A stretch of 64,000 nucleotides of DNA, from the IMG/VR virus record IMGVR_UViG_3300027861_000002, one strand, 5' to 3'. Below the pieces are notes generated by a model. That model saw only the letters and a list, made by a program, of their open reading frames with translations, was not told where the DNA came from and made no database searches. Source of the stretch: an uncultured virus (IMG/VR IMGVR_UViG_3300027861_000002) (taxonomy: Duplodnaviria > Heunggongvirae > Uroviricota > Caudoviricetes > Schitoviridae). Made by a program: the position numbers and the translations under genes. This document shows positions 2,583 through 54,316 of this stretch, in pieces; position 1 is the first letter of the stretch; every line of letters starts with the position of its first letter.

Positions 2583-2792
2583 TTAATAAAATTCTATCTT
2601 ACCATCTGGTAACATAACATGGCCCAACTCATGCAATAATTCAAAGGTACAAGTATACCTAGAAGGAACCAATATAGTATGAGGTCTATTACCCTCTAAC
2701 CTTATACCCCTAAACCTTGCTCTATCATTTACAGGATAAAACTTAATACCTGTATCAAATATCATTACTACTTCTTTCATATACCTATCCAA
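2583..2792 (-). CDS. Hypothetical protein (terminase-ATPase-like fragment?)
   Basis: 69 aa containing RGIRLEGNRPHTILV; first gene of the - strand block. Confidence 0.45.
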   Translation of the reverse strand: MDRYMKEVVMIFDTGIKFYPVNDRARFRGIRLEGNRPHTILVPSRYTCTFELLHELGHVMLPDGKIEFY

Positions 2793-3133
2793 TATAAATA
2801 ATTCAAACCTTTCAGGCCGATAACCAGAGTTTAGACTTTAGACTCCCTTATGTCAAATTTACTTGTTGGGAATCATTCTTATTTAGAATTTCGGACATAG
2901 GTAAATATTATTTTTAGGAAAATAATTTTGTGTATGGTTTCAGCTTGAAAAGCTATATTAGGGATTGTTGATGCAGGTTTTTTAGGAAAATTAAAAATAG
3001 GTATGAGATCAGTACTTATGTGTAGAACTACACCTACACCGAACACCCCCCCACCAAGCAATCCTAAAGGATTGTTATTAATCAGTTGAGGTAAACCTCA
3101 TGTTGAGGAGCCATAACACAAGGATAACTAACC

Positions 3134-3364
3134 ATGTCAGACAAACAAATGGGTATGTGGGCATCACTAACAGCAATCGTTAGAACAGCACCAGCTACAG
3201 TACTAGACTCTAAGGAGAGACTAGGCAAGACATCTAGCCTTGTGCTAGACAACATAGACATAGAACTGCTATCTAACAAGTACGAAGGTCTTAAGGAGCT
3301 TAATGACAAGTACGGTACTGAAGTAGAAACATTAAATGAATTAGCAAATAAATTTGGTTTATAA
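3134..3364 (+). CDS. First early gene, hypothetical protein
   Basis: 76 aa, AAGGA RBS upstream, followed by an intrinsic terminator. Confidence 0.7.
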   Translation: MSDKQMGMWASLTAIVRTAPATVLDSKERLGKTSSLVLDNIDIELLSNKYEGLKELNDKYGTEVETLNELANKFGL

Positions 3365-3369
3365 AGATT

Positions 3370-3397
3370 AGGGACGTAAAGTCCCTTCTCTTTTTTT
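3370..3397 (+). terminator. Intrinsic terminator
   Basis: AGGGAC-GTAAA-GTCCCT hairpin followed by a T-rich tract. Confidence 0.7.
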
Positions 3398-3470
3398 CCT
3401 AAACAAGACCTATACAGATAGGGCATACAGTACACCTGTACACTCCCTAAACACTAAAGATAGGGCTTGT

Positions 3471-3490
3471 ATTACTCAAGGAATTAATTA
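3471..3490 (+). promoter_or_regulatory. Early repeat motif copy 1 (ATTACTCAAGGAATTAATTA)
   Basis: Near-identical copies at 3806 and 4214, each at the head of a terminator-bounded unit. Confidence 0.65.
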
Positions 3491-3494
3491 GTAC

Positions 3495-3800
3495 AGGATA
3501 GGGGATCAAACCCTAGTATGTAGCAAGCCTATTGCACTGTAATACATACGACATATCCTAGTGATGCAATCATATTGGCTCATTACCAATATGCAACTAG
3601 TCGGTGGAGTCATACTCTGCAAGTTATTACGAAAATAGGCATAATTGTCTCGGAAGTATATTGGCTCAAATATACTCGTAAATTACGAAGGCTCTGAGCA
3701 GGCAGTTGATATGTATTAAAGTAATTGACATTGAGGAACTGACGAGTTCAACCAAGCATTACATATCTAATCCATAAACCCTCTTCGGAGGGTTTATTTT
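3495..3800 (+). ncRNA. Candidate structured non-coding RNA
   Basis: No ORF of 60 aa or more; many nested inverted repeats; lies between motif copy 1 and a terminator. Confidence 0.55.
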
Positions 3801-3801
3801 T
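3776..3801 (+). terminator. Intrinsic terminator
   Basis: AAACCCTC-TTCG-GAGGGTTT then ATTTTT. Confidence 0.85.
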
Positions 3802-3805
3802 ATGC

Positions 3806-3824
3806 ATTACTCAAGAATTAATTA
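3806..3824 (+). promoter_or_regulatory. Early repeat motif copy 2 (ATTACTCAAGAATTAATTA)
   Basis: Immediately after the terminator, upstream of ORF 3886. Confidence 0.65.
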
Positions 3825-3885
3825 ATAAAGGTTTAGAATCAGTACCTACATAAACTGGTTCATCTTTCAATAAGGAATTAATATC

Positions 3886-4176
3886 ATGGCTTTACAAAAC
3901 AACAACAAACCTTCAAACAAATCAGACTTCAAAAAGGCTGATGTATTCATAAATTTCACAGCTACAGCTAGTAGTCCAAATGTAGAAGGTCAATTCGATC
4001 TCCCTACACATAACCAGTCTTTGAAGTTATATGCTGATGAAGACATTATTAGTAGATCTATTTACCATAAACTACTTCAGGATCCTAATGCTGACATTAC
4101 TATAACCTTTAAAGTTAATAGCGTTAGATTGGCTAAACAACCTATCAGTGATACTGATGCAGATATTCCTTTCTAA
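3886..4176 (+). CDS. N4 gp2-like ssDNA-binding transcription activator with an SSB-like acidic tail
   Basis: KKADVFINF motif, position just before RNAP II subunit 1, C-terminus DTDADIPF. Confidence 0.55.
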   Translation: MALQNNNKPSNKSDFKKADVFINFTATASSPNVEGQFDLPTHNQSLKLYADEDIISRSIYHKLLQDPNADITITFKVNSVRLAKQPISDTDADIPF

Positions 4177-4183
4177 TCTTTTT

Positions 4184-4209
4184 GAGCCTCTTAATGAGGC
4201 TCTTTTTTT
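4184..4209 (+). terminator. Intrinsic terminator
   Basis: GAGCCTC-TTAAT-GAGGCTC followed by T7. Confidence 0.85.
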
Positions 4210-4213
4210 CTTC

Positions 4214-4232
4214 ATTACTCAAGAATTAATTA
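4214..4232 (+). promoter_or_regulatory. Early repeat motif copy 3 (ATTACTCAAGAATTAATTA)
   Basis: Immediately after the terminator, upstream of the RNAP II genes. Confidence 0.65.
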
Positions 4233-4250
4233 GTTATGGATTTATTTATT

Positions 4251-4272
4251 GGGTACTCCGTACCCTTTTTGA
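4251..4272 (+). promoter_or_regulatory. N4-type hairpin promoter candidate (GGGTAC-TCC-GTACCC-TTTTTG)
   Basis: 6-bp stem with a 3-nt loop (GGA on the template strand), then a T run and G; same architecture as N4 virion-RNAP promoters. Confidence 0.6.
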
Positions 4273-4302
4273 AATATTTACTTATTAAGGAGATAGATAG
4301 TT

Positions 4303-5202
4303 ATGAACCAAGAGCAATCAGATTTGGAACTCACATATTCAAAGAAGCTAGTTAACCTAGCTTGGAGGAATACTAATGTTGATCCAATATTGAAACAGGA
4401 GATGATAGATAGATTAGATACCTATAGGACAGGTAGTTACTACCAATCCAAGAACGATAGATTAGATAGCATTAACTCTGTTGATAGCTCAGATATCATT
4501 GATGAAATAATCATAGCTACAGTAGCTATCAGAGATATGTCTGTAATCCAACAAGTAATAACTAAGCTAGCTCATAAACTATTTAGTTCATTGGATCAAA
4601 TACAGGCTGTTACAACAGTGATAGAAATACTCACAGTTCTATGTGAGTTTGATCTATATCACATCTACTTCAAGGAAGATGTTAACAATAGTTTAGGTAC
4701 ATTAGCTATCAAATCTAATATTCCTATCTCAGCAGAGATGGAAGAATATTTGGATCAAGTTCAATACCCATTACCAATGATATGTGAACCAAATGATTGG
4801 AATACCAACAGAGATGGTGGTTATTTACATGGATCAATTCACTGTGTACTAGGCAAAGGAAACTTCCATGAAGAAATTCAAGCCTTAGATAGGCTTAATG
4901 AACTTCAATCAATCCCTTGGGAAATCAATCCCTACATACTTCAGTACGAGGAGAAACCGAATAAACCAGAGAAACTCAAATTACCTGAACAAGTTACCCA
5001 GTTCAAGAAACATAGCAAGAACTCAGGTAAATGTTATGCAGAAATGATAGCTAGAGGGAACAAGTTCTACTTCACTTGGAAGTTTGACAAGAGAGGTAGG
5101 GCATATTCATGTGGATATGATATCAATTTGCAGAGTTCTCAATATAAGAAAGCAGTAATTAACCTAGCCAATAAAGAGATTATACCTCTAGAGGCAATTT
5201 AA
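4303..5202 (+). CDS. Phage RNA polymerase II subunit 1 (N4 gp15-like)
   Basis: T7-family N-terminal half: YPLPMICEPNDW and FYFTWKFDKRGRAYS (DxRGR motif). Confidence 0.93.
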   Translation: MNQEQSDLELTYSKKLVNLAWRNTNVDPILKQEMIDRLDTYRTGSYYQSKNDRLDSINSVDSSDIIDEIIIATVAIRDMSVIQQVITKLAHKLFSSLDQIQAVTTVIEILTVLCEFDLYHIYFKEDVNNSLGTLAIKSNIPISAEMEEYLDQVQYPLPMICEPNDWNTNRDGGYLHGSIHCVLGKGNFHEEIQALDRLNELQSIPWEINPYILQYEEKPNKPEKLKLPEQVTQFKKHSKNSGKCYAEMIARGNKFYFTWKFDKRGRAYSCGYDINLQSSQYKKAVINLANKEIIPLEAI

Positions 5203-5302: not shown

Positions 5303-6292
5303 ATGTTTCAGCGATTCACAGGAATTCAATACTTGGCATTAGATATAGCAAATACTTTTGGACTAGACAAAGAATCTTTCGATTCTAGGCTAGATTGGGT
5401 AAGGTTACATAGGGCAGAACTGGAGTCATTTGCAGAAGAAGCAGATGAACCTATGTTATTTCTTAAAGGTGTAAAAGCTCTTAGAGATGTAGAAGCAGGA
5501 AAACTTATAGGACATAATGTCTTTTGGGATTGTACAGCTAGTGGTCTACAGCTAATGGCTTGTCTCACAGGATGTGAGGCTACAGCATTAGAAGTAAATA
5601 TTGGTACTGATGAGAGGAAAGATGTGTATATATCTGTAGCTAAACAGATCAATGAGGAATGCGGTTTTAGCTTTACTAGACAAGATGTTAAACCTGCACT
5701 GATGACAAGATATTATAATTCTATACTCAATCCAATAGAAACATTTGGTGAAGATACAGATGAATTGAAAGCTTTCTATACAATCTTAGGCAAATCCTTT
5801 AAAGGAGCTGAAGAGTTTATGGAAGATTGCAATGATATCTATCAGAGCTATAGGAAAGATGTATATAGCTGGACATTACCAGATGGTCATGTAGCTGTAT
5901 GCCCTATAACTGTTACCAAGGTAACTAAGTTAGAGATTGATGAACTGAACCATGAGAAGGTTGCATATACTCATTCAGTGAACCAATGGAATAAGAAGGA
6001 CAGATCACTACCTGCAAATATCATTCATTCAATTGATGGATATGTAGCTAGAGAGATGGTTCGTATGGCTAGAGAACAGGGATTTGAGCTTGCCCATATA
6101 CATGATGCATTCACATTTTTACCTAACTATGGTAATCAAGTAAGACAGAACTTCTTAGACATACTCCAAGGGATAGCTAAGAGTAATCTATTAGGTGATA
6201 TCTTCAATGAAATAGCAGGTGAAGATGTAGGTTGGGAAAGAGTAGGTGATATCTCAGAATTGATCCATAAATCAAACTACGCTCTTTCATAG
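5303..6292 (+). CDS. Phage RNA polymerase II subunit 2 (N4 gp16-like)
   Basis: Motif A DCTASGLQ, motif B RQDVKPALMTRYY, ANIIHSIDG, motif C IHDAF. Confidence 0.95.
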   Translation: MFQRFTGIQYLALDIANTFGLDKESFDSRLDWVRLHRAELESFAEEADEPMLFLKGVKALRDVEAGKLIGHNVFWDCTASGLQLMACLTGCEATALEVNIGTDERKDVYISVAKQINEECGFSFTRQDVKPALMTRYYNSILNPIETFGEDTDELKAFYTILGKSFKGAEEFMEDCNDIYQSYRKDVYSWTLPDGHVAVCPITVTKVTKLEIDELNHEKVAYTHSVNQWNKKDRSLPANIIHSIDGYVAREMVRMAREQGFELAHIHDAFTFLPNYGNQVRQNFLDILQGIAKSNLLGDIFNEIAGEDVGWERVGDISELIHKSNYALS

Positions 6293-7859: not shown

Positions 7860-8038
7860 ATAGTACGCAATACCCCAGTCAGCGGAGGGGATTAATATCA
7901 CTGACAGATAGGCTATTATTCCCTCTCCTTTAGGTAAATAGCTCCATAAGAGTTACTTACTTATTTTGGCGGATAAAAGTGACTATTTGACTTTAGGGTG
8001 GAAAGTAACCCTATCTAATTCAATTCAAAGGAAAATCA

Positions 8039-8317
8039 ATGATTAATACTAATTTAAGTCCAGATCAAATGTTAGATATCTGTGGCTTTGTCACAGAGCA
8101 TAAGAAGACATTTCAAGAGAATAAATTGAACTTAGGTGCTATGGCTTTGTTCTGTAATACTCACTTCGATTTTGAAGTGAAAAAACATGACATAGTATTT
8201 CTATGTGAAGCAGTAAAGATTCTATTGGATCAAAGGAACCAACCAGTAATGCATGTAGCTAAAAAGATAATTCATGATTTACAAGGTCAAATACAGGAGT
8301 TAAAAAATGAAAGTTAA
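8039..8317 (+). CDS. Hypothetical protein
   Basis: 92 aa with AAGGA RBS. Confidence 0.65.
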   Translation: MINTNLSPDQMLDICGFVTEHKKTFQENKLNLGAMALFCNTHFDFEVKKHDIVFLCEAVKILLDQRNQPVMHVAKKIIHDLQGQIQELKNES

Positions 8318-8480
8318 TCCAATTAATTCTAATGGCTCTGACCATGTTATCCGAGGTGGCTCGTGGTACGACAACGTGGGCCTCGCCAGGTCTGCTCTCC
8401 GTGGCTGGTACTTGCCAGGCCTTCGTGGCGGCAACGTTGGTGTTCGCTTAGTAAGAAAAGCAAAACAAGGAAATAAATAA
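8307..8480 (+). CDS. 57-aa peptide equal to the C-terminal variable-region module of an FGE-sulfatase/CLec fold (copy A)
   Basis: Below the ORF-track cutoff. Manual translation MKVNPINSNGSDHVIRGGSWYDNVGLARSALRGWYLPGLRGGNVGVRLVRKAKQGNK; AGGAG RBS; stop overlaps the next start (TAATG). Confidence 0.8.
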   Translation: MKVNPINSNGSDHVIRGGSWYDNVGLARSALRGWYLPGLRGGNVGVRLVRKAKQGNK

Positions 8481-9046
8481 TGAATATTCAATCTGAAATT
8501 ACAGCATTACAAGAACAAATAAACTTACTTAAAGAAAAGCAAGCTAATCAAACTCAACTACCTGACTGGAATAAAGACTTCAAAGATATTCCTATCAATA
8601 TACCATTTCTTATGGGTAATACAGATGAGCATCAAGCAGTTATATTAACTAAACCATATCAAATGTGTGACCACACTGTAACAGAAAAAGAATGGTCTAT
8701 AGTAATGAGCACCGTATATGCTACAAGTGAGGCTGATCTACCTAAGGTGAATATCTCTTGGAATGACTGTCAAGAGTTCATTAAAAAGTTAAATGAATCT
8801 CAGGATGAATGGGAATATTCACTCCCTACAGAAGCTGAGTGGGAATGGGCTTGTAAAGGTGGAAGTTTATTAGAACCCAAGAATATTGATGAGGTTGCTT
8901 GGCATTATCATAACTCAGATGAAAGATTACATGAAGGAAAAGAACTAAAACCTAATGGTTTTGGTTTATATGACATGTTAGGTAATGTCTGGGAATTCTG
9001 TCAAGACTCATACACTTCTTATAAGGATGTTAAAGATGAAAACTAA
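8480..9046 (+). CDS. FGE-sulfatase (SUMF1/CLec-fold) domain protein lacking its C-terminal RGGSW...GFR segment
   Basis: FLMG, PKVNISWNDC, LPTEAEWEWAC and PNGFGLYDMLGNVWEFCQD motifs; stops before RGGSW. Confidence 0.9.
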   Translation: MNIQSEITALQEQINLLKEKQANQTQLPDWNKDFKDIPINIPFLMGNTDEHQAVILTKPYQMCDHTVTEKEWSIVMSTVYATSEADLPKVNISWNDCQEFIKKLNESQDEWEYSLPTEAEWEWACKGGSLLEPKNIDEVAWHYHNSDERLHEGKELKPNGFGLYDMLGNVWEFCQDSYTSYKDVKDEN

Positions 9047-9203
9047 CCCAATTAATACTAGCGGCTCTCGCCGTGTTAACCGAGGTGGCTCGTGGTACGA
9101 CTATGCGAGCAGCAGCCGGTCAGCGTATCGTAACCTCTTCTCGCCTGACTATCGTAGCTACGGTTTAGGGTTCCGTTTGCGCAGGAGAAAGAAAAATGAC
9201 TAA
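9036..9203 (+). CDS. 55-aa peptide equal to the C-terminal variable-region module of an FGE-sulfatase/CLec fold (copy B)
   Basis: MKTNPINTSGSRRVNRGGSWYDYASSSRSAYRNLFSPDYRSYGLGFRLRRRKKND; AAGGA RBS; start homologous to copy A; +1 frame relative to ORF 8480. Confidence 0.8.
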   Translation: MKTNPINTSGSRRVNRGGSWYDYASSSRSAYRNLFSPDYRSYGLGFRLRRRKKND

Positions 9204-9447
9204 AATAAATGAAGGCGTAATCAGTGAGGATGTCCAGAGAGTATTTAATGCTGTAAGTGAAACATTAGCTAAATTAGATATTAGATTACTAGAAGGTAAT
9301 CTTGGGTTAATGTTAATAATAATGACTGTCTTAACAGAAGTAGGTTTGAATGAAAAACAACGCTGGAAATATATAAAAGACTTATATGATCCACTTGTTG
9401 GAGCTACAGTGGAGGAGGAATTGGATAATGAAAAGAAAGAAAAATGA
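9196..9447 (+). CDS. Hypothetical protein
   Basis: 83 aa, AGGAG RBS, overlapping the previous stop. Confidence 0.65.
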   Translation: MTKINEGVISEDVQRVFNAVSETLAKLDIRLLEGNLGLMLIIMTVLTEVGLNEKQRWKYIKDLYDPLVGATVEEELDNEKKEK

Positions 9448-9590
9448 CACATGCAAGTGATGAACCATATCCAGATAAACTCTGTGTAGTATGTCCTAAC
9501 AATGACAGCACTAAACTAGATGGCTGTAAATTAGGTCTTATATTTACAGGTGACAGAGAGATGTTACCTAGAATTCTTGGAGAGTGATGA

Positions 9591-10259
9591 ATGATTAAAG
9601 TATTAAATGAAGGGCATGTACAACTCATAGATCATATGGGTAGTGATTTAGCTATAAGTAGGAATGCGAGAGTATCATACGCTGCAGAATGGAGAGCAGG
9701 TGAAGCAGATACTAAATTAATTAATTATTTATATAATGCAGGGCATAACACGCCATTTGAGGCAGTGACATTCACATTTGATGTGAAAGCACCTATCTTT
9801 GTCTTACGCCAATGGCATAGACATAGAACCCAATCATACAATGAATTGAGTGCTCGATATAAAGAACTTCCAGAAGAATTCTTCATACCTGAACTTGATA
9901 CTATTACATTTCAGCATCCTGACAATAAACAAATGAGGACTGATGAACAGAATCCTAATGCACAGCAGATTCAAGATTTAATTGTTGGTTCAAACAAATC
10001 ATCATTCATTATATACCATGAATTAATTAAACTAGGTTGTCCTAGAGAACTAGCAAGATCAATTCTACCAGTAGGAACTTATTCACACATGTTCTGTACT
10101 CTTAACTTAAATAACTTATTTAAATTCTTACATGAGAGGTGTCATTATCATGCACAGTATGAGATCCAAGTATATGCTAACGCTATGCTTGAGTTGGTAA
10201 AACCAATAGTACCAGTGGCAATGAAATGCTTTGAAGATAACTTTGATTTTAAGAGGTAA
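9591..10259 (+). CDS. thyX: Flavin-dependent thymidylate synthase
   Basis: RHRTQSYNELSARY signature; HNTPFE; ELARSILP; HAQYEI. Confidence 0.96.
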   Translation: MIKVLNEGHVQLIDHMGSDLAISRNARVSYAAEWRAGEADTKLINYLYNAGHNTPFEAVTFTFDVKAPIFVLRQWHRHRTQSYNELSARYKELPEEFFIPELDTITFQHPDNKQMRTDEQNPNAQQIQDLIVGSNKSSFIIYHELIKLGCPRELARSILPVGTYSHMFCTLNLNNLFKFLHERCHYHAQYEIQVYANAMLELVKPIVPVAMKCFEDNFDFKR

Positions 10260-13768: not shown

Positions 13769-14389
13769 ATGGCAATAAAGATTGATAAACCAATAATTGA
13801 TGCAAGGGTTCTTACAGAAGAGAAACCAAAAGAAGAAGTGATTGAACCAAAACTAAGAAAGGTAGATATTAAGAGAGCTAAAACATTGACTGGTACAACT
13901 ACTAAGATCAAGACTAATGAATCAAATATGTACATTACACTTAACAATATTGAAATAGAGGGGAAGATCCATGTACATGAGATATTTATTAATTCTCAGC
14001 ATCAAGGCTCTCACCAGTATATATCTTTTATTAGCCGTCTTATTTCTGCCGTATTTCGTGCTTCGAGAGATCCTTCTTTTATCGTTAGAGAAGCTAAGTC
14101 TATCTTTGCAGAAGAGGGATACTGGGAACAAGGAGGAGGAGGATTCCATCCTTCTGTAATCCATCACATTGGTTGTGTAATAGGAGATCACTTAGAACAC
14201 TTAAAAGTTATCAACTCAGGAGAGAAAGTCCCTGAGAAGGCTCCTATGGAGCAGGAAACACCTAAAGAAGAATCAATCAAAGAAGCCAAGAAACCTAGAG
14301 GTAGTTTATGTCCAGAATGTGGTGAGTATTCTGTAGTGAAAACTGATGGATGTGCGGGATGTATCTGTGGCTATTCACATTGCTCCTAG
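13769..14389 (+). CDS. NrdJb-like / TSCPD-domain protein (C-terminal part of class II ribonucleotide reductase) with zinc ribbon
   Basis: LTGTTTKIKT, MYITLN, EIFINS, ISRLISAVFR; C-terminal CPECG...DGCAGCICGYSHC. Confidence 0.8.
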   Translation: MAIKIDKPIIDARVLTEEKPKEEVIEPKLRKVDIKRAKTLTGTTTKIKTNESNMYITLNNIEIEGKIHVHEIFINSQHQGSHQYISFISRLISAVFRASRDPSFIVREAKSIFAEEGYWEQGGGGFHPSVIHHIGCVIGDHLEHLKVINSGEKVPEKAPMEQETPKEESIKEAKKPRGSLCPECGEYSVVKTDGCAGCICGYSHCS

Positions 14390-24181: not shown

Positions 24182-25669
24182 ATGAAGTATTATACTTACA
24201 CAGAAGAAGTAAATGAAGCATACGTAGTAGCAGTACTAATCAAAGATACTGCATTCAAAGAAGTTAACCTAAAGGAATACTATTTAAACCCATTAAACGA
24301 ACTAGGGGTACCTAAAGAGAAGGTAATCTTTATTGGGTTAAAATATAACCCTAACGGAAAGATCTCTGCTACAGAGCAGAAGGAATATCTAGATTTAATT
24401 AAACCATATCTAGAAGAGCTACAAGTAAAACTCTTACTTGTTACTGATGGAAAGTACTTTAAAACTTTAACCAAAAAACCAAAGGTAGAACCTTACTATG
24501 GGTATAAAGTTGAATGTGCTTACAAAGGGTATGAAGAGTATACAGCAGTATTAAGTATTAACTCTGAAGCTCTATTCTATAAACCTGATTTACAAGTAAA
24601 ACTAACTAAGAGTTTACATATAGTGAACTCAATCCTATGTGAAACATATGTGGATCCAGGTATACGTGAATTTGGTATTCAAGCTCTTTTTGATAGGGAA
24701 TCTATCGAGAAAAAACTACTAAACTATTTAACTGAACCCATTCTTACCTGTGACATAGAAACGTCTGGTTTATCCCTTACCAACTCGATAATTTCTATCT
24801 CATTTGCTAAGAACGAAAATGAGGCCATTGCTTTCCCTATTGCAGAGGAAAACAAAGCTACATTAAGAACTTGGTTCACATTATATAAAGGTACTCTCAT
24901 ATTTCATAACTGTACATTTGATATAAAAATGCTTATCTACCATCTATTTATGAATGATCCGTTGGATATGGAAGGTCTAATTGATGGATTAGAGGTAATG
25001 TTCAGATCCATAGAAGATACTAAATTAATCATTTATTTAGCTACCAATAATACTGCAGGTAATAACCTAAAACTAAAAGATAACAGTGCAGATTTCCTAG
25101 GTAACTATGGATTGATTAATTCAGATACAGATGTAACTAACATTCCTATGGATCAATTACTTGAATATAACGCTAAGGACTGTCTAGCTACTTGGTATGT
25201 CTATAACAAGTTTAAACCAATGATGATTGCTGATGAACAGGAGAACCTATACAAGGAAATATTTATTCCAAGTGCAAAAGTTATTTGCCACATGGAACTT
25301 ATAGGTATGCCTATGGATATGGATCAAGTACAACATGCTAAATCCTATCTAGAAGATATCATTGCTAAGCAGTATCAAATATTTAATAAATCTAGAATCA
25401 TAAAGAAGTTTACTTGGGAGCTGAACAGATTGGAAATGATCAAAGCTAACGCTAAATTGAAATCTAAGGTTAAATCTATTATGGACTTTGATGTGGAATA
25501 TAACCCTAACTCAGGTAACCATAACCAAAATCTAATCTATGATTTCATGGGTAATGAAGTAATAGACACTACTGATTCAGGATTGCCCGCTACAGGTAAG
25601 GAAACGCTAGAGAAGGTACTTAATAAACTCATCCATGAACATGGAATAACAGAAGACGAACTTAAATAA
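24182..25669 (+). CDS. Family A DNA polymerase, N-terminal part (3'-5' exonuclease and start of polymerase domain)
   Basis: ExoI CDIETSG, ExoII FHNCTFD, ExoIII YNAKD, MELIGMPMD, YNPNS; ends before motif A. Confidence 0.9.
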   Translation: MKYYTYTEEVNEAYVVAVLIKDTAFKEVNLKEYYLNPLNELGVPKEKVIFIGLKYNPNGKISATEQKEYLDLIKPYLEELQVKLLLVTDGKYFKTLTKKPKVEPYYGYKVECAYKGYEEYTAVLSINSEALFYKPDLQVKLTKSLHIVNSILCETYVDPGIREFGIQALFDRESIEKKLLNYLTEPILTCDIETSGLSLTNSIISISFAKNENEAIAFPIAEENKATLRTWFTLYKGTLIFHNCTFDIKMLIYHLFMNDPLDMEGLIDGLEVMFRSIEDTKLIIYLATNNTAGNNLKLKDNSADFLGNYGLINSDTDVTNIPMDQLLEYNAKDCLATWYVYNKFKPMMIADEQENLYKEIFIPSAKVICHMELIGMPMDMDQVQHAKSYLEDIIAKQYQIFNKSRIIKKFTWELNRLEMIKANAKLKSKVKSIMDFDVEYNPNSGNHNQNLIYDFMGNEVIDTTDSGLPATGKETLEKVLNKLIHEHGITEDELK

Positions 25670-25682
25670 AAAGGAAATAACA

Positions 25683-26264
25683 ATGTCATTATTACTAAGA
25701 AAAGCAACACAAGATTTATTAATTAAATTTAATTTAGGAGAATATCATATAGATATTAATCAAGAGTTAGATATGGTTATTGTAGGAGAATGCGGCAACT
25801 ATTTATGTACAGTTAAAGGTGTAACTTTTAGTAGAAAATCTCCTACAAAAGCTGAAATAAATTTTGCTGTAGAATTACTTAACAAATTTCTAACTACACA
25901 TAAATCTAAAATAAACAAAGTTATCTCAACTAAAGCAGATTGGAAACTTAATTCCCCAAATGAAAATTTATGGTCAGGGAACAAAATCAGACAAATTGAC
26001 ACTGATGAGCAGTCTATTAGTGTTTACTTCAAAAAAGGATTAGATTCTAGAGTAATTTTCTATAAAAAAGACCTAACATTAATTAAAGTATACTTACCTG
26101 GTTATGGTAGTGAATCAATTAATGTAGCTGACTTAAATACATTCCTTAAGGGTAAAAAGATGCAGAATAAATATTTACACATTTTGGATCAAAAATTAAT
26201 TGAGGATGACTTACATAAAAAATACAATGCTGCAATAAACGCACTTAATACCTGTGCTATCTAA
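25683..26264 (+). CDS. Hypothetical protein inserted between the DNA polymerase halves
   Basis: 193 aa, own AAGGA RBS; stop overlaps the polymerase C-part start. Confidence 0.75.
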   Translation: MSLLLRKATQDLLIKFNLGEYHIDINQELDMVIVGECGNYLCTVKGVTFSRKSPTKAEINFAVELLNKFLTTHKSKINKVISTKADWKLNSPNENLWSGNKIRQIDTDEQSISVYFKKGLDSRVIFYKKDLTLIKVYLPGYGSESINVADLNTFLKGKKMQNKYLHILDQKLIEDDLHKKYNAAINALNTCAI

Positions 26265-27394
26265 TGAATAGATCTGAAGCCATAGAACAGGCAAGGATTA
26301 TTAAAGCTCTAATTACTCTTACTGAAGTATCTAAGATTACAGGTACTTTCATTAAAGCATTTGAAGAGAAGTCATTTACTAAGGAAGATGGTATTAACTA
26401 TCTTCATGGAAACTTTAACTCAGGAGGAACCAAATCAGGAAGACTATCCAGTTCATCACCGAATTTACAAAATATCCCTAGTACTGGTAACCCACACTCT
26501 AAAATAGTAAAGAAATGCTTTAAGCCACCTAGTGGCTGGCTCTTTGTGGGAGCAGATTTTAGTTCTTTAGAAGCTAAAATTGGTGCTTTATTAACAAAAG
26601 ATCCTGCTAAATTAGGTATATACACTGAAGGCTACGATATGCACTCATTCAATGCTTTTGGGTATTGGGGGGATAAAATGCCTGATATACAATTAGAATT
26701 AACTAAGGCTAATTCAATTAAAGAAAGGGTGTATATAATTAACTCAATTAAAGATAAATACCCTGAATTTCGACAAGCATCAAAAACAATAACCTTTGCT
26801 GCACAATACGGGGGAAGTTATAAGACATTTATGGATTCAGGTTTTTCAATGGAAGAAGCTAAACAAATTGAAGCTAACTACAACAAACTATACGAAACAT
26901 CTATTACTTGGGCAGAAGATAAAATTAAACAAGCTAGTAAAGATGGGTTTGTGACCTGTGCTTTTGGATTGAAGTTAAGAACACCAATTATAGGTCAAGT
27001 AGTTATGGGTACGTCTAGCACACCTTATGAAGCTTTAGCAGAAGCCAGAACAGCTGGGAATGCTATGCAACAAGGGTATGGATTACTTAATAATAGATCA
27101 GCAATAGAGTTCCAAGAACTGCTATTAAACAGTGAATTCAGGTATAATATTAAGCCTAGTTGTCATATACATGATGCACAATATTTCCTTGTAAAGGAAG
27201 ACGTAGATACCATTCATTGGTTAAACCAAAACCTAATTAAATGTATGTCTTGGCAAGAACTACCTGAACTAAAGCATGATCAAGTAAAGCTAGGAGCAGA
27301 GTTAGATCTGTTCATACCTGACTGGTCAGAACACATAACACTCCCCAATGGGGCAACTAAAGAACAAATAGGAGATATATTAAATGAGAAGTGA
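26264..27394 (+). CDS. Family A DNA polymerase, C-terminal catalytic part
   Basis: TKSGRLSSSSPNLQNIP, motif A ADFSSLE, motif B RQASKTITFAAQYG, motif C HIHDAQY. Confidence 0.93.
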   Translation: MNRSEAIEQARIIKALITLTEVSKITGTFIKAFEEKSFTKEDGINYLHGNFNSGGTKSGRLSSSSPNLQNIPSTGNPHSKIVKKCFKPPSGWLFVGADFSSLEAKIGALLTKDPAKLGIYTEGYDMHSFNAFGYWGDKMPDIQLELTKANSIKERVYIINSIKDKYPEFRQASKTITFAAQYGGSYKTFMDSGFSMEEAKQIEANYNKLYETSITWAEDKIKQASKDGFVTCAFGLKLRTPIIGQVVMGTSSTPYEALAEARTAGNAMQQGYGLLNNRSAIEFQELLLNSEFRYNIKPSCHIHDAQYFLVKEDVDTIHWLNQNLIKCMSWQELPELKHDQVKLGAELDLFIPDWSEHITLPNGATKEQIGDILNEK

Positions 27395-30001: not shown

Positions 30002-32149
30002 ATGAGAGATTTAGACTCGATAGAACATTTTGATACCTTAGAGGAAATAACCCAAATATTGATGGCTAAGACTCAAAATGATAATCCTCTGTTCTTTAGA
30101 ATATTGACCGCTTATTACTTCTCCAAGATAGCAAGTATGATGAGAACCAATATTAAAACACATGATAGAGGTACAATACCTGTAAGCCTATATGCCATAA
30201 ACTTAAGTGTTTCTGGTACAGGTAAGGGACATAGTACTAATATCATGGAAGAGCAAGTTATCCATAAATTTAAAAAGAATTTCTTAAATAATACTTTTGA
30301 GGAAGTAGCTAAGAAGAACCTAGCTAAACTAGCTAATTTTAGAGCTACTAAATATGCTGATGATCCAGATGAGACTTTAGAACGGGTAGAGAAAGAATTC
30401 GATCTACTTGGGCCACTATTATTTTCATTTGATTCAGGTACTACTCCAGCAGTTAAACAGATGAGGCATAAATTACTTATGGCTAATGCTGGATCAATGA
30501 ATTTTGAATGTGATGAGATTGGTAATAATATAGCTAGTATTAATGAATTACTAACTACCTTCCTTGAATTATATGATGTAGGTAAAGTTAAACAAAAGCT
30601 AATTAAGAATACAACTGAAAACAGACGTAATGAGGAAATTGAAGGCAAGACACCTACTAATATGCTTCTATTTGGTACACCTAACAAGGTATTAAATGGA
30701 TCCAAAGAGGAAGAAACTTTCATTTCAATGTTAGATACTGGATATGCTAGAAGATGTTTATTTGGATTACAGACTAAGTCTAATGGATTCAAAGATATGT
30801 CTGCTTCAGATCTATATGACATTATGACTGATACTTCATCAGTTGATTACCTAGATGCAATATCAAATCACTTTGGTAACCTTGCAGATATACTCAATTT
30901 CAATATAACACTAACCATGACAAAAGATGTTAGCTTACATATTATTGAATATAAAACCCATTGTACCAAAATAGCTTATGATCTAGGAGATCATGAAGAC
31001 ATCCTTAGAACAGAGATTGAACACAGGTATTACAAAGCACTAAAACTTGCAGGAGCATTTGCTTTCATAAATGGTGATCATGAAATAACTGAAGACATCC
31101 TCTATTCAGCAATCAAGTTAGTTGAAGAATCTGGTAAAGCATTTGAAAGTATTCTTTCCAGAGACAGAAACTATGTCAAATTAGCCAAGTACATAGGAGG
31201 AAACAAGGGAGAACTTACCCAAGTTGATCTAACTGAAGACTTACCTTTTTATAAGGGAGGAGAAGCTCAGAAGAGAGACTTAATGAACCTTGCAGTAGCA
31301 TGGGGTTACAAGAACAATGTAGTCATTCGTAGGGCATTCAGAGATGGAATAGAAATGCTCCAAGGAGATTGCTTAGAAGAAACTAATATAGATAAAGTTA
31401 TAATATCTTATAGTCAGGAATTAGCTGCAGGATATCAACCTGATGTAGCACCATTCAAGGACTTACATAAATTAACAACTTTATCTGGTTACCACTATAC
31501 GGCACACCACTTCATAGATAATTACAGATCCAGTATTAAAGCAATTCCAGGATTCAATCTATTAATCTTAGATGTGGATTCAGGTATTTCTATGGATACA
31601 GCTAAAGATCTTTTATCTGAATATATGGCTCTATTTGCCACAACTAAAAGACATACACCTGATAACCATAGATTTAGAATTATTATGCCTTTATCTCATA
31701 CTCTCAAACTAGTACCAGAAAACTACTCTAAATTCATGATGAATGTATTCAACTGGTTACCATTTGAAGTAGATGAAGCAACTAAAGACATAAGTCGTAA
31801 ATGGATGGCATATTCAGGTACATACGATTATCAGGATGGGAAACTGCTTAATGCATTAACCTTTATACCTGAGACAAGTAAAGAAGAGGAATATAAGAAG
31901 CTTATCTCTGATACCAGTAATTTAAATAACCTAGAGAGATGGTTCTATACAAATACTGATAACGGGAATAGAAGTAACCAAATGATTAAATATGCATATG
32001 CATTAGTAGACAAAGGTCTAGCACTCGAAGATATCAAGAATGCTCTATATTCGTTTAATCATAAAATCAAAGATGGTCTTACTGAAACTGAGATCAATTC
32101 AACAATTTTAATATCAACAGCTAAATCAATAGCAAAGAGAGATGCATGA
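30002..32149 (+). CDS. N4 gp43-like DNA primase (P-loop domain plus AEP/PriCT-like C-terminus)
   Basis: SGTGKG, CDEIG, LILDVDSG, TTKRHT...RFRIIMPL, GNRSN; N4 gene order. Confidence 0.88.
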   Translation: MRDLDSIEHFDTLEEITQILMAKTQNDNPLFFRILTAYYFSKIASMMRTNIKTHDRGTIPVSLYAINLSVSGTGKGHSTNIMEEQVIHKFKKNFLNNTFEEVAKKNLAKLANFRATKYADDPDETLERVEKEFDLLGPLLFSFDSGTTPAVKQMRHKLLMANAGSMNFECDEIGNNIASINELLTTFLELYDVGKVKQKLIKNTTENRRNEEIEGKTPTNMLLFGTPNKVLNGSKEEETFISMLDTGYARRCLFGLQTKSNGFKDMSASDLYDIMTDTSSVDYLDAISNHFGNLADILNFNITLTMTKDVSLHIIEYKTHCTKIAYDLGDHEDILRTEIEHRYYKALKLAGAFAFINGDHEITEDILYSAIKLVEESGKAFESILSRDRNYVKLAKYIGGNKGELTQVDLTEDLPFYKGGEAQKRDLMNLAVAWGYKNNVVIRRAFRDGIEMLQGDCLEETNIDKVIISYSQELAAGYQPDVAPFKDLHKLTTLSGYHYTAHHFIDNYRSSIKAIPGFNLLILDVDSGISMDTAKDLLSEYMALFATTKRHTPDNHRFRIIMPLSHTLKLVPENYSKFMMNVFNWLPFEVDEATKDISRKWMAYSGTYDYQDGKLLNALTFIPETSKEEEYKKLISDTSNLNNLERWFYTNTDNGNRSNQMIKYAYALVDKGLALEDIKNALYSFNHKIKDGLTETEINSTILISTAKSIAKRDA

Positions 32150-33660
32150 ATAATAATTTATTACTAATAGCAGGTAAGTCTGCTACAGGCAAGTCTGCCT
32201 CACTCATGAACTTAGAGAATCCAGAAGGAGTAATGTACTTAGGTTGTGAGAACAACAAATCCTTACCCTTCCCAAGTAAATTTCAAGAGTTTAACATTAC
32301 TGATCCATTACAAGTATACGAAGCATTTGAGGTTGCAGAAACCAAAGATAATATCCATACAATAGTAATTGATACCCTTACTTACTTAATGGATATGTAT
32401 GAATCCATGCATGTACTTACTTCAAGCAATACGATGAAAGCCTTAAGTGTAAGGGCAGTTCACTAGAAATGGTGTTCTAAAGAAACCAATTGAATTCAGG
32501 GAAACTCTAAGGGAGAAATCCTAAGACAATCCTGAGCGAAGATTGACAATACCCCAGCTATATAATACAATATTGTATTTTAAGTTTAGGGGAATATGAT
32601 GAATAAGAAAAGATATGGTAATGAATTACATCCTTTATACACACGCTGGTTAAGTATGAACCAACGCTGTAATAATCCTAATCATAAGCAGTATAGAGAT
32701 TGGGGTGGTAGAGGAATTTGTATTTCAAACGAGTTAAAAAAATTTAATGATTATGTAAGTATAGTTGAAAATTTACCTAATTATTCTCTTGATAATTCAT
32801 TAGACAGAATTGATAACAACAAAGATTATTCAAAAGATAATTTACGTTGGACTAGTAGTAATACACAAGTAGCAAATCAAAGACCTAATTCCAGAGGTTT
32901 TAACAAATATACTGGAGTAGGTTGGAGTAAAGCCCATAATAGATGGGTTGCTAGAGTATCTTATAAAGGTAAAGTTTTACTCAGTAAAGTAACCTTAACT
33001 GAAGAAGAAGCTTTAACTGCTAGGAATCAATTTATCATTGATAATGATTTACCTCATCCTATCCAAACATATTGTCAATAACGTGCAACGACTATCCTGA
33101 GAAGGAGTACACTCAAGTGAGTGGAAGCGGTTGGTACCTAAACAAGTAGAGTTGTAGGTAAAGATATAGTCTAGCCTTATATGAAAATATAAGAAGTTCA
33201 TAAGAGAACTGATATGGTTTAACGAACCATATTGAATATAAGCGGGGGCGGCTATGCTCAATTCTTTAAGAAGTTAATGCAAACCTATGTAGCTAACTCT
33301 ACCAAGAACATTATATTCCTAGCCCATACATTAGATGTGATGAATGAAGCAGAGATGATCTCTGAAACCTTAGTTAAGGTTAAAGGTTCATTGATGAATA
33401 ATGGTATTGAGAGTGCATTCTGTACTGTTATTGGATCCAAGAAAGTAGCTATCAAGAAATTGAAAGATACTAATTCAATGCTAAACATAACTGAGGAGGA
33501 AGAGCTACTGGGGTACAAACATGTATTTCAAACTAAACTAACGAAAGAAACAGTTAATGAAAGACTCCGAAGTCCTATAGGAATGTGGACTAAAGACGAA
33601 ACATTTATCAACAATGACGTTCAATTAGTTTTGAACCGACTACATACATTTTATAATTAA
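32146..33660 (+). CDS. Sak4-like AAA ATPase (N4 gp44-like), spliced: exon 1 32146-32443, exon 2 33245-33660, 237 aa
   Basis: GKSATGKS and VIDTLT in exon 1; splicing restores NTMKA-W-GGYAQFF; exon 2 has IIFLAH and RSPIGMW. Confidence 0.9.
32444..33244 (+). mobile_element. Group I intron (IA2-like, 801 nt)
   Basis: P1 GCCT/GGGC with U-G at the 5' splice site; P AATTCAGGGAA (32493); Q AATCCTGAGC (32528); R GCAACGACTA (33085); S AAGATATAGTCT (33161); terminal G at 33244; reading frame restored. Confidence 0.92.
32596..33081 (+). CDS. Intron-encoded HNH homing endonuclease with AP2 DNA-binding domain
   Basis: HPLYTRWLSMNQRC, WGGRGI, SLDRIDNNKDYSKDNLRW...QVANQ; AP2-like YTGVGW...WVARV...EEALTARN. 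Confidence 0.9.
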   Translation: MMNKKRYGNELHPLYTRWLSMNQRCNNPNHKQYRDWGGRGICISNELKKFNDYVSIVENLPNYSLDNSLDRIDNNKDYSKDNLRWTSSNTQVANQRPNSRGFNKYTGVGWSKAHNRWVARVSYKGKVLLSKVTLTEEEALTARNQFIIDNDLPHPIQTYCQ

Positions 33661-35121: not shown

Positions 35122-35279
35122 TTGAAAAGATTAAACATGGAGTAATTGCTGTAATCCTAGCACCATTAATAATAGGTGCTTGGATGATTATCCCATTAAT
35201 CTTGACAATCTTACCTGTAATATTCCTGACTTTAGTCATATATTTTATATTACAGGAAGAATATTCCAAATCTAAGTAA
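35118..35279 (+). CDS. 53-aa hydrophobic membrane protein
   Basis: Manual translation MIEKIKHGVIAVILAPLIIGAWMIIPLILTILPVIFLTLVIYFILQEEYSKSK; ATGA overlap with the previous gene. Confidence 0.55.
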   Translation: MIEKIKHGVIAVILAPLIIGAWMIIPLILTILPVIFLTLVIYFILQEEYSKSK

Positions 35280-38200
35280 GAACTTGGACGACTGCTGGTA
35301 CAGCAGCAGTCTCCCCTAAACCAAATGGATTCTGAAAAGGTGCAGTTGGTTCTGTAACAATGTTTGAATCGAATGGAGTAGATATATCTAATCCAAGCAT
35401 AGCTTCAAGCATATGTAATAGGAATACTGATGCACTCTTCTCAGTTGTCATCCTAGCTAATACTTTAAATATTCTAAGAGGATATCGAGTAAATGGTGCT
35501 AGACCCATATCATTAGCATATTGAATATACTTATGTGTTGGTAAAGCGTAGTTAATGAAATCTTCTCTTAAATGGCTAACTACTTGATTAGCAGGTTGCT
35601 TTTGGTTCTTAACCAGATGCTCGTATATAGCAAATCTAGCAATGAAATCACTATATTGAGTAAGCTTTAATGCGAGTTTAAACGTACTTGTATTGGCTCC
35701 CATATACAATTGATTAGTAGCTTCTTTACCTAATTGAGGTAATTTATTTAATACAGGATCAGCCCATCTGATAAATTTACTCTTATTTGAGTGGAAGTCC
35801 TCAGTAGTATCAATATCTTCAACAATAGTTGGAAACAGTCCTTTATCAATTAGAGGTTTAATTGGATTAAGCCGCTGTAACTCTTTGTTTGAAACAATTC
35901 TTGCTTCAATATCTTTACGTTGTATAGTAGTAATTCCAGCTAACTGTAATTTTTTAGCATCAGATACTAACTGCCTTTCAATATTTAACCATCTATCTAA
36001 ATGACGTATACCTTCTATTTGAAGTTTAGCCATAATTTCAGGAGGGACACCATTAATTATACCAACAATAGTATTACTGAATATATTATTCATAATCACT
36101 TGAGGTAGCCTTACAACAATAGTTGTCTTAGCAAATTTTACTATTTCTTGCCAAATAGTTTCAGCTTTTTTAAGCATGGATTGTATTTTATTCCTTGGTT
36201 TATCAACTACACTAAACTTCCTATATGCAAAGAAAATATCAACCCAAGCATCTCTGACAACAATACCACCATCACCAAACACACTAGTAGCATACCTACG
36301 CATATCTTCAGGCATTAATCTATATATCTCAGCTAATTCTGGGTCAGTAGAATCTTTGTTTATGGTTACATAGCTCTGAGGTAGTTTTAAATAATTCTTA
36401 TCAAAGTCTGCTTTAAGAATATCAATAGTTTCTCTATTAAAACCTTTAGTATTAGCCTTGTCTTCCATATGAGAATACATATGCCCTAGCACATTAAATG
36501 CTCTATCATCTCTTTTGAATAATCTTTTCTCTACAGAATTAGATATAGTATTCCTATAATCTGAGATATGACCTTTATCATCAATAGTAGGGACCATAAT
36601 ATTATCTTGTATAGTGGTATTACTATTAAGAGTACGTTTCATCTCACGGATAGTCTTCATCTTAGTTTTGTTGAAGTCATTAATATTTTTTAAGAAAGTA
36701 GCTACATCATTTGCATTACCTTCTTGTAACATGGATTGACCCATACTAACTTCACTAGTTAAAGAAGTGATAGTTTTAACCCTAGTGTTTAAAGCATAGT
36801 CTTTATTAACCATAAGAACCTTAGGTTTAGAGTTAACTCTAATCTTATTCTCTGGAAGAGAAGATTCTATAACATAACCTTCTTTTAATAATTGCTCTAC
36901 ATCTACTTCATCAACTACTCTAGTATCAACAAATGGGTCATTTAATTTGGCAGCATAACCCTTGTGTGTATGCGCTATTTTGTTATCAAAGTTTTTAGTT
37001 AAAGATTCTTTCTTGAAAGCATTATGCATATCAACTAAGAAAGTAAACCCATTCTGCTTAGGATTAATAGCAACCTCACTATCAATTAAATCAACTACCT
37101 GTTTATTAACAGTTGGATTCGTTAATTGTATACCATACAAGCTTGTTAATTTATTAATTAATTCAATTGCTAGATCCATATTCTTAGGAGCAGTAATTCC
37201 TAATTGAGGAATTGTATGAGGTAATATAGCAATTGATGTTGGATTCAACATAGTGTTGTACCAATTTGCTTTACCAAAAACATTCAAATGAGCCAAAGAA
37301 TTACTCTGTTTTCTGTACAAGTTATACAGGTCTTTAGAACCTAACTTACGTAATTGAATAAGGGTATCCTTGATCTCATCTCCAACTTTACTTGGATCAT
37401 CAATCAAATCTCTTAAGTCTTTAAGATTATAATGTTTACGGAATAAAGCAGAAGCATCATTCCTTATAAGTCCCTGTGTTAAAGCTTCCCAAGTATTATC
37501 TGAAACATTTTCTGTTAACATACTATCTTTGAGATCATTACTTACAACATGACGAACAGTATCTCTAGTTTTATCTATAACACTCATAGATCTAGCAAGA
37601 TGTTCAACAATAGGTATCTCTTCTTTATCACCAAAACCAATAACTTCCTTAATTGTAGCCGCTAGGAATTTACGTCTAGATACACCCATCTTAGCTGCCA
37701 TATTATTAAAAGCGTTTAAATAAGCAGAAGTAGTTATTGGATTAACAACACCAGCAACTAATGAAGCTGTATTTACATACTTATTTTTATGCACTTTAAG
37801 GCTAAAATTAGCTAAAGGTTCACCTATCAACTTAGTAGCAACTTTACTAATAACCTTATTACCAGCATTCAAACCATTAATAAGAAACTGAGTAGACATA
37901 TGAGTCTTTTGTATCTTATTTAAATCTTTAACCAAATTCAGTAATACTACATCACCTGTATGGCCCCTATTAAATCTAAGTAATAAAGCATTTACAGCAA
38001 TATTAAAATAATGTTGTAAGGTAGCTGCAAAAGATTGTTTCTTACTATCTTTAAGTAAATTAGGTCTGAAAGAAGCTAAATGTTTAATCAAGTGTTTATT
38101 AGTTAATCCATAAGCAACAAATTCATGTAAACTAATTGGCACTTGTTCAGTTTTAATTGTACCTGTATTAAGATCCATTAATTGAATTGCTTGTGTTTTC

Positions 38201-53915: not shown

Positions 53916-54316
53916 CTATTTATTTAAGTTTGGATCAGTAGCATGTTGCCACTTAAATCCGCCTGCATGATTAAGTTTACCCGAACAAACTCTAGAAAGA
54001 CTCCCACTATTAATACCTAAAGTAGAGACTATTTCTTTAGCATTATCCCATAACTTAATAATTTCTCCTGTATCCTTATCAATTTGCTGTATAGATATGT
54101 TTACTGTATTTAATTTACCTAACATAAGTTCCTTAGTTAAATTAATTTCTGAATCATGTCTAGCCCACCTAAATCCTTTAAATGGTTTCATTAATTTATG
54201 CGCCCTATTCATACCACCATGATTAAGTACTTGGTGTTAGTACACCGATACATCATCAAATACCAAATTTTATACAAAGGATGTTCACTTAAATTTTTCG
54301 ATACTGATATTTTCAT
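53916..54316 (-). pseudogene. Decayed free-standing HNH/NUMOD1 homing endonuclease (two fragments)
   Basis: 54316-54209 encodes MKISVSKNLSEHPLYKIWYLMMYRCTN.. (HNH N-terminus); 54212-53916 encodes a NUMOD1-like domain (QQIDKDTGEIIKLW...SRVCSGKLNHAGGFKW); nuclease core missing. Confidence 0.65.

Follow-up and report, generated by a model that had tools for sequence, protein, structure and literature searches.

The 64,000-nt stretch of DNA analyzed here (the window, IMG/VR record IMGVR_UViG_3300027861_000002) comes from an uncultured Schitoviridae phage and carries a split gene for a protein of the FGE-sulfatase/C-type-lectin fold. A scaffold open reading frame (ORF) is flanked by two small ORFs, piece A upstream and piece B downstream, each of which encodes the C-terminal segment that the scaffold lacks (Table 1). 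Our analysis indicates that this is probably a three-piece target of a diversity-generating retroelement (DGR), carried by a phage in whose sequence, as far as read, no reverse transcriptase (RT) was found, and that a DGR of the cell rewrites piece B in trans and the pieces assemble noncovalently. By mechanism, the locus is a DGR target, and it is not a single-chain FGE protein.

Piece B holds a true DGR variable region (VR) that is cognate to a bacterial template. Scanning metagenome contigs with the invariant bases of B led to two bacterial DGR contigs, L090 and L091. A first-pass annotation of the window had advised searching elsewhere for a template repeat and RT, and both are present on L090, where HRDC, Avd, and a 325-aa RT are followed directly by a 129-nt template repeat. 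The VR of B differs from this repeat at 20 positions, 19 of them among the 40 template adenines and 1 among the 89 other positions, leaving 88/89 non-adenine positions identical. The single non-adenine mismatch, at position 9185, is the sole difference between VR and template at the 3' end, far shorter than the initiation of mutagenic homing (IMH) sequence of BPP-1. The template base here is C, in contrast to the G of the phage VR and of the native bacterial VR. The native VR, which is on L091, has 22 adenine mismatches to the template in addition to this same single C-to-G change near its 3' end. The VR corresponds to the C-terminal segment of the FGE/C-type-lectin fold.

On L090, Avd matched the NCBIfam model DivGenRetAVD at 98.7 bits (cut-off, 80) and bAvd at 3e-18, HRDC matched at 7e-20, and the RT matched RVT_1 at 9e-20, its assignment to DGRs being based on its neighbors and not on a tree. 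To one side of the cassette lie the L and M genes of a type II secretion system (T2SS), and to the other side tRNA-Ser and the gene for an AMP-binding enzyme. The best match to the RT was 63% identical in a search with one genome per species, and GspL was at most 36% identical to that of any of 400 sampled genomes of one class. The native target on L091 is a 370-aa protein with PG_binding_1 and a complete FGE-sulfatase domain, and its best solved relative is Treponema denticola variable protein 1 (TvpA; PDB structure 2y3c, 7e-20). The phage scaffold is only 34% identical to this native target, and sharing between phage and bacterium is thus confined to the VR. GC content is 0.51 in the template, 0.58 in the VR, and 0.34, a phage-like value, in the scaffold; the foreign composition of the VR is explained by the fact that only a template-length stretch is shared with the bacterial element. 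No target lies beside the RT and template on L090, where a single junction (~2717-2728) truncates both HRDC and gspL. L091 carries the target and a full HRDC gene, and its avd is truncated at ~500-560, where the L090 post-template spacer continues the sequence as an inverted copy.

We then asked how B varies in nature by aligning the assembled contigs (contigs, not reads) of four seawater runs to positions 7900-9600. Two contigs of run X3 have 0 differences from the window: one of 8.6 kb, which stops at 9077, and one of 45.7 kb, which begins at 9140. Between them, the assembly contains a bubble over 9048-9169 made of two 122-nt unitigs (depths of 16.2 and 11.7) that differ at 14 positions. Runs X6 and X8 hold further B alleles. 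Across X3, X6, and X8, each of the 19 variable sites (19/19) corresponds to an adenine of the template and occupies the first or second position of its codon, and several of these sites are triallelic; the chance of all 19 falling on adenines is about (40/129)^19. A and the surrounding phage sequence stay constant while B varies. Because phage contigs that are otherwise identical carry several different alleles at template-adenine sites, B appears to be undergoing rewriting at present, and the position-specific hypervariability that the first-pass annotation proposed to look for is found in B. Run X6, which holds window-identical phage contigs, also has one contig whose loose ends correspond to the L090 template and its downstream flank. 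The two X3 haplotypes differ at 9078-9139 only; positions 9140-9186 are common to both, adenine substitutions included.

B could instead vary through homologous recombination, either with a bacterial VR of the L091 type or between phage haplotypes, with no direct DGR action. The phage VR and the L091 VR have common flanking identity and the same G at 9185, and the window encodes a Sak4-like annealing protein, a single-stranded DNA-binding protein (SSB), and a RusA-like resolvase. The central patch that distinguishes the X3 haplotypes also fits patch recombination better than it fits 3'-anchored homing. However, the homology on either side extends for only ~35 nt and ~20 nt and includes variable sites, and the extent of identity is exactly that of the template repeat. 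A bacterial DGR would still be needed as the ultimate source of diversity, and experiments reported in PMC3240598 show that a donor in trans can retarget the VR of a phage as it replicates. We consider recombination without direct DGR action unlikely, and rewriting of B by a DGR in trans remains our preferred explanation.

The fold itself is divided between reading frames. Compared with Pfam FGE-sulfatase (PF03781, 255 positions), the scaffold matches profile positions 70-196 (E 1.8e-20) and is without the last ~50 residues of the fold, ending just past the conserved GNVWE-x-C-x-D-x-Y motif with an acidic tail. Where a single-chain FGE-sulfatase would hold both, positions 70-196 and 206-255 lie in separate ORFs and frames. 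To our knowledge, DGR targets of the FGE-type fold are binding proteins, not enzymes. A Shine-Dalgarno-like site and an ATG precede or begin all three ORFs, and the homology between A and B begins at this site. A and B are each in the +1 frame relative to the preceding ORF: an in-frame TAA precedes A, the stop of A overlaps the scaffold start (TAATG), and B overlaps the scaffold end by 11 nt. A 22-mer shared by A and B has 2 exact matches in the window, compared with 0 expected from 100 shuffles, and GC content, computed over 100-nt windows, reaches a maximum of 0.64 in A and 0.56 in B, versus about 0.30-0.40 around them. These results bear out the first-pass annotation, which had described a split fold with both small ORFs encoding its C-terminal segment, ribosome-binding sites and homologous starts for A and B, an exact stretch common to the two, and a higher GC content than in their surroundings.

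The frame change is not a one-off assembly slip, because it is identical in the X3 contig, which shows 0 differences from the window over 7900-9077, and in G001, a 43-kb IMG/VR contig that is 100% identical over 1501 nt of the locus and is the sole close record; the G001 and X3 data possibly derive from the same source samples as the window. We considered the 92-aa and 83-aa flanking ORFs as remnants of the scaffold and rejected them, as they are unrelated to it.

We compared the scaffold with 5.8 billion proteins, where the next best match after itself was 51% identical and no near unsplit relative of the exact protein was present. A script classified 114 of the 120 best matches (five rows were corrected by eye, and the other 6 are without the motif). 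Of these, 105 are canonical, 5 besides the window's own are scaffold-only, and 3 are circular permutants; scaffold-only or permuted forms make up 6 of the 20 best non-self matches. The scaffold-only relatives, which include P0006, P0010, and P0021, stop at the same point as the window scaffold and have acidic tails. In the permutants (P0002, P0034, and P0036), an A-like segment with a correspondingly placed Met comes first and is followed in frame by a C-terminally short scaffold. Natural fusions therefore exist for both pairings, the canonical form joining a scaffold to a B-type segment and the permuted form an A-type segment to a scaffold.

Split genes recur in other phages. L176 has a 162-aa scaffold ORF, an overlapping +1 variable ORF, and a second variable ORF (79 aa) ~1.1 kb upstream, and its variable stretches are identical over ~100 nt apart from NNC/NNT-type codons. 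L178 is arranged as an upstream 70-aa variable ORF, a 181-aa scaffold, an HNH homing-endonuclease ORF (161 aa; phrog_3377, 6e-40), and a downstream variable ORF. In L179, the scaffold is followed by a +1 ORF with two tandem variable segments (L179 4413-4730). The most extreme case is L196, a complete 43-kb phage record in which a permuted scaffold ORF is followed by six further variable cassettes (2734-5037), seven copies in all and the only ones in that record. Every L196 cassette comes with a GGAGG site and starts with ATG or GTG, each ORF overlaps the next in +1, and most of the differences between cassettes are at positions 1-2 of NNC codons. A separate translation start for every piece is thus found in L176, L178, and L196 as well. 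One scaffold is accompanied by two variable-segment peptides in L176, L178, and the phage of the window, and by seven in L196. The scaffold ORFs of the split phages are intact, with 156-188 codons in AT-rich genomes, and are 39-46% identical to that of the window. L177 (3737-4801) also has two tandem variable segments after one scaffold, in frame.

We ran the motif script on 78 IMG/VR loci with FGE relatives and located the scaffold end in 60. Three of these show a +1 split, namely the phage's own record, L182 (the same as L176), and L194 (the same as L179), and one is the L196 array; in nearly all other classified loci the variable segment is in frame. The script left 18/78 loci unclassified, and the four that were inspected are all canonical genes. 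An RT lies within 3 kb in 2/78 loci. The first-pass annotation had named the absence of the split from related phages as grounds for abandoning its proposal, and the recurrence in L176, L178, and L179, with its extreme in L196, speaks for the opposite: by this comparison, the split layout is conserved, not an accident.

This recurrence also bears on whether the locus is a decaying relic, in which a frameshifted DGR target (scaffold and B) and a leftover A have no function and the rewriting of B is incidental. Homing needs DNA signals only, so rewriting would be possible without function. B is not called by gene callers, A is invariant, and other genes of this phage are fragmented too. Treponema isolates retain target genes after loss of the RT and template, according to the portion of PMC4891356 on such isolates. 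Against decay, the split recurs with intact scaffold ORFs and start signals in phages whose scaffolds have diverged to the identities given above, the best non-self homologues include scaffold-only and permuted forms in the proportion already noted, and the scaffold has a phage-like GC content where the variable pieces keep a template-like one. A relic is improbable, and we continue to read the pieces as parts of a working target.

A programmed +1 ribosomal frameshift near 9032-9046 could fuse scaffold and B, in which case the start of B would be coincidental. The variable ORF is +1 and overlapping in the window, in L176, in L179, and between the L196 cassettes, and in both window copies a Lys codon with A or G next, a context permitting +1 re-pairing, stands directly before the ATG. 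However, no slippery or stall motif is common to the lineages; the window, L176, and L179 junctions share only acidic codons that read ATG in +1. In addition, a Shine-Dalgarno-like site and start codon are present on every piece, A comes after an unrelated ORF and an in-frame stop, and the L178 pieces must be translated apart, because the 161-aa endonuclease ORF separates them. We therefore hold frameshifting to be very improbable and take separate translation as the working interpretation.

The absence of an RT, as reported in the first-pass annotation, held in the phage sequence read. A family scan found no RT family among 53/67 listed window ORFs of at least 90 aa, and there was no RVT_1 match in G001 (CheckV completeness, 64%). 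With up to 3 mismatches allowed, the 22-mer occurs nowhere in the 64-kb window beyond its two copies, and the template pattern had no other match among IMG/VR contigs. Thus, the RT and template that would accompany a VR in its own genome were not found in the phage sequence read. RVT_1 is likewise missing from the records of L176, L177, L178, L179, L183, L186, L189, and L196, for which CheckV completeness is 91-100% in seven and 31% in L189. That the RT, Avd, and template belong to the phage and lie in the ~4.3 kb outside the window is barely conceivable: a minimal ~2-kb cassette could fit there, but from the gene order at the window ends, which in part we take to be that of N4, this stretch should hold the terminase end and the structural genes joining those ends, the sole template found is flanked within 1 kb by the T2SS genes, tRNA-Ser, and the AMP-binding enzyme, the same bacterial template flank occurs in run X6, and seven other phage records with such loci, six of them with a CheckV completeness of 91-100% and one of 31%, have no RVT_1.

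A complex model of scaffold and A gave an interface score (ipSAE) of 0.91 in three runs, with 0.00 for the best control, contact agreement of at least 98%, and a predicted local distance difference test (pLDDT) score of at least 86 for the partner. The mark for such models is reached by 116/157 solved pairs and 2/215 mismatched pairs. The pLDDT of the scaffold itself was ~60 with unrelated partners and 87 with A. The predicted fold of the permutant P0002 has a mean pLDDT of 71, with values below 50 at residues 1-12 and 17-40, and is low in the N-terminal variable segment. Start signals on every piece, the L178 endonuclease ORF, the natural fusions, and the model of scaffold and A together suggest that the pieces are translated separately and assemble noncovalently. 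The earlier claim that the scaffold is completed in trans by either peptide draws on the A model, the natural fusions, and the conservation of the layout, and stands as a suggestion; the switchable specificity that the annotation drew from it is likewise hypothetical.

We propose that the phage replicates in a cell carrying a DGR, where adenine-mutagenized complementary DNA (cDNA) of the cell's template would overwrite the phage VR; by analogy with trans targeting in the laboratory, we infer that the cell-encoded DGR acts on the phage in trans. The phage would in this way borrow the hypermutation machinery of the cell. The scaffold and small peptides would be translated separately, with coupling through overlapping stop and start codons, and would assemble noncovalently into a complete lectin fold in which the binding surface may be variable when supplied by B and fixed when supplied by A. 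An intracellular binding partner is probable, since the locus sits amid early and nucleotide-metabolism genes and the product has no predicted signal peptide.

Several points weigh against this interpretation. The population data are all assembled contigs, and runs X1-X5 may be the window's own source. L090 and L091 have truncated genes at their junctions and may come from strains with rearrangements or be assembly chimeras. The bacterium that bears the DGR is a putative host of the phage. A single 3'-anchored homing event would not leave the shared 3' third of the VR in the X3 haplotypes, for which recombination between phage haplotypes or patch-wise integration of cDNA must be invoked; the latter might, speculatively, be carried out by the phage's Sak4-like annealing protein. 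The phage VR is not followed by a GC hairpin of the BPP-1 type (folding z-score, +1.43), and the native bacterial VR is likewise without a GC stem downstream (+0.24). The negative results for the phage leave out the ~4.3 kb outside the window (the longest contig with these proteins is 68,280 nt). B is absent as a called gene from a collection of 15 billion proteins, in which it has no small homologue; a small-protein search, by a method that needs shared exact words, returned nothing for B and A itself alone for A. None of the runs listed with this stretch is recorded as RNA. The complex model may have passed because it resembles solved single-chain FGE structures, and to that extent the structure prediction called for in the first-pass annotation agrees with the proposed completion of the fold but may have another cause. 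Finally, A is invariant and has no known template, though no search aimed at a template for A was made.

Piece A has a history that differs from that of B. The first-pass annotation held that the two differ largely at NNC/NNT codons, which we did not find: the proteins are identical at 27/53 positions, and many of the nucleotide differences are synonymous third-position changes. Compared with the L090 template, A differs at 27 adenines and at 22/89 other positions. The exact A peptide is present on 5 contigs, there is no variant in its 90% cluster, and the X3 contig spans A without a difference. With a GC content of 0.58, A is as rich as B. Because A is off-template at these 22/89 non-adenines, invariant, and GC-rich like B, it looks like a variable segment written from another, related template. 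The idea that both peptides derive from a DGR located elsewhere thus holds for B, for which a bacterial template, Avd, and RT were found, and does not extend to A as an output of this template. Two relationships were rejected. A and B are not a template-VR pair, as neither has adenine at every differing site, and they are not two outputs of one template, given the non-adenine differences of A. A 250-nt contig in run X6 is 80% like A over 8327-8426 and then continues as homologous but different sequence; we read it as another gene.

In its mechanism, the locus resembles the BPP-1 DGR and its target Mtd. Both show adenine-specific rewriting from template to VR of the C-terminal, ligand-binding segment of a C-type-lectin fold. 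In BPP-1, VR and template also differ slightly at the 3' end (IMH versus IMH*), to which the single difference at 9185 may correspond. Mtd is a single-chain tail-fiber protein of BPP-1, whereas the target here is in pieces among early genes. The BPP-1 genome carries its RT, Avd, and template beside the target, whereas none was found in the phage parts read here, and the GC hairpin that follows the BPP-1 VR was not found either. For phage-type DGRs, such GC-rich hairpins or cruciforms are placed 4-34 bp after the VR in the section of Guo 2011 (PMC3240598) that deals with them. The same source, in its account of trans targeting, reports that a plasmid-borne avd-TR-brt can retarget a VR on a replicating phage. 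As proposed for our phage, a donor of avd, template, and RT on another replicon rewrites a phage VR. Unlike the present case, which would be a natural transfer from a bacterial chromosome to a virulent-type phage, theirs was, as described there, a laboratory construct with a transplanted IMH and hairpin.

The T. denticola TvpA/HRDC-type DGRs (Architecture C of Wu et al. 2018, PMC5758913) are similar, in the part of that study describing them, in their FGE-type lectin fold, their HRDC and avd, and targets that are not necessarily beside the RT. Their remote targets are in the RT's own genome, as far as that part goes, whereas in our case a phage carries the VR and a bacterial contig carries the template. 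In the relevant passage, Wu et al. 2018 did not expect remote targets across the phage-cell divide, and the survey method of Roux et al. 2021, as set out in its pertinent section, is blind to remote targets. T. denticola isolates without an RT and template offer another parallel: in the portion of PMC4891356 on these isolates, their VRs differ from the template of other genomes mostly at adenines. These are described there as static remnants within one species, in contrast to the coexisting alleles found here.

A precedent for the split is NrdA of Aeromonas phage Aeh1, a gene in pieces that arose through insertion of a homing endonuclease and in which an essential fold is reportedly encoded in separate ORFs that reassemble (PMC3045599 and PMC2988022). 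The arrangement in L178, with an HNH endonuclease ORF exactly between scaffold and variable piece, is of the same type. In the window, each piece has its own translation start, as in such genes in pieces, but unlike them no endonuclease gene lies between the pieces, and the split-off piece is hypervariable and has two or more alternative copies. Two papers on N4-like phages or Schitoviridae mention DGRs only as an alternative that was not found. In full-text literature outside subscription journals, we found no cell-encoded DGR matched to a VR on an RT-less phage and no split, permuted, or multi-cassette DGR target.

PHROG matches identify the window (GC content, 0.34) as an N4-like podophage, with two N4-type RNA polymerase subunits, primase, portal, major head protein, and terminase in addition to the virion RNA polymerase. 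Its primase is at most 52.7% identical to those of 475 GenBank N4-like phages, and the 15 GenBank records that match the scaffold are phages of kinds other than N4-like. With ThyX as an anchor, we recovered 79 loci besides the phage's own record, none syntenic and none with FGE; with RNAP2, the phage's own record alone was recovered. The genes and elements of the locus and its surroundings are listed in Table 1.

Table 1. Features of the split FGE/C-type-lectin locus and selected genes of the window
Feature	Position	Strand	Description
dUTPase	7428-7859		Gene on the upstream side of the locus
Upstream ORF	8039..8317	+	92 aa, no known family; A begins in its last 11 nt, +1
Shine-Dalgarno-like AGGAG	8295..8299	+	7 nt ahead of the piece A ATG; read from sequence
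Piece A	8307..8480	+	57-aa ORF; C-terminal FGE/C-type-lectin segment; PF03781 206-255, E 4.7e-6
22-nt exact repeat, A copy	8351..8372	+	RGGSWYD codons
Scaffold ORF	8480..9046	+	188 aa; short N-terminal helical lead and FGE-sulfatase profile 70-196
Shine-Dalgarno-like AAGGA	9023..9027	+	8 nt ahead of the piece B ATG; read from sequence
Piece B	9036..9203	+	55-aa ORF, +1 frame; PF03781 207-253, E 5.6e-5
VR in piece B	9058..9186	+	129 nt homologous to the L090 template repeat
22-nt exact repeat, B copy	9080..9101	+	Within the VR
VR 3' end, IMH-like	9166..9187	+	Template-identical save 9185; homology stops at 9186
Downstream ORF	9196..9447	+	83 aa, no known family; starts 8 nt before the B stop
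ThyX	9591-10259		Gene on the downstream side of the locus
Virion RNA polymerase ORF	35272-47346		4024 aa; PHROG match

Several other genes of the window are in more than one piece. The DNA polymerase is encoded by two ORFs, 24182-25669 and 26264-27394 (phrog_17 positions 516-926 and 930-1247), with a 193-aa ORF of no known family between them (25683-26264). The Sak4-like annealing protein is likewise in two ORFs (32146-32466 and 33232-33660), and an HNH endonuclease ORF (32596-33081) cuts the gene, the same gene-in-pieces layout as that of the FGE gene of L178. A 206-aa ORF (13769-14389) matches the C-terminal end alone of the ribonucleotide reductase large subunit (phrog_84 789-973 of 975) and, by this match, is a fragment or another split gene. 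A 98-aa ORF (53916-54212) that adjoins the major head protein gene has a weak HNH-endonuclease match (phrog_20162, 1.7e-6).

The variable segment was also found apart from scaffolds. An exhaustive phmmer search with A gave 966 representatives at E <=0.001. Among the 150 best matches, 37 are proteins of at most 270 aa with one to four variable segments and no room for a scaffold; phmmer ranking favors multi-copy proteins, and some segment-only ORFs may be partial. The 10 that we read (P0127, P0131, P0136, P0138, P0146, P0130, P0160, P0170, P0182, and P0273) are made up solely of one to four tandem copies of the variable segment (~45 aa). These matches are a lead toward the variable segment as a free module well beyond this phage. 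Among viral contigs, L003 and L005 encode near-identical FGE proteins of 220 aa and 218 aa that differ mainly in the C-terminal variable segment, and a 300-nt stretch of L005 is repeated exactly (2880-3179 and 5784-6083), at the end of the contig.

More tentatively, and with somewhat more doubt than confidence, we suggest that RT-less phages of the virulent type outsource hypermutation to a host DGR, that one scaffold pairs combinatorially with fixed and variable peptides, and that the segment-only metagenome ORFs may belong to the same system. A phage VR matched to a bacterial template would mean that DGR action can cross genomes. DGR surveys seek targets beside the RT or in the same genome. 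A lytic-type phage could acquire targeted hypermutation even though its own genome lacks the machinery, and the DGR of a host would become a resource or a liability in phage-host conflict. For uncultured phages, a template-VR match may serve as a host-linkage signal, and a split scaffold with alternative variable peptides would be a natural design for combinatorial binders.

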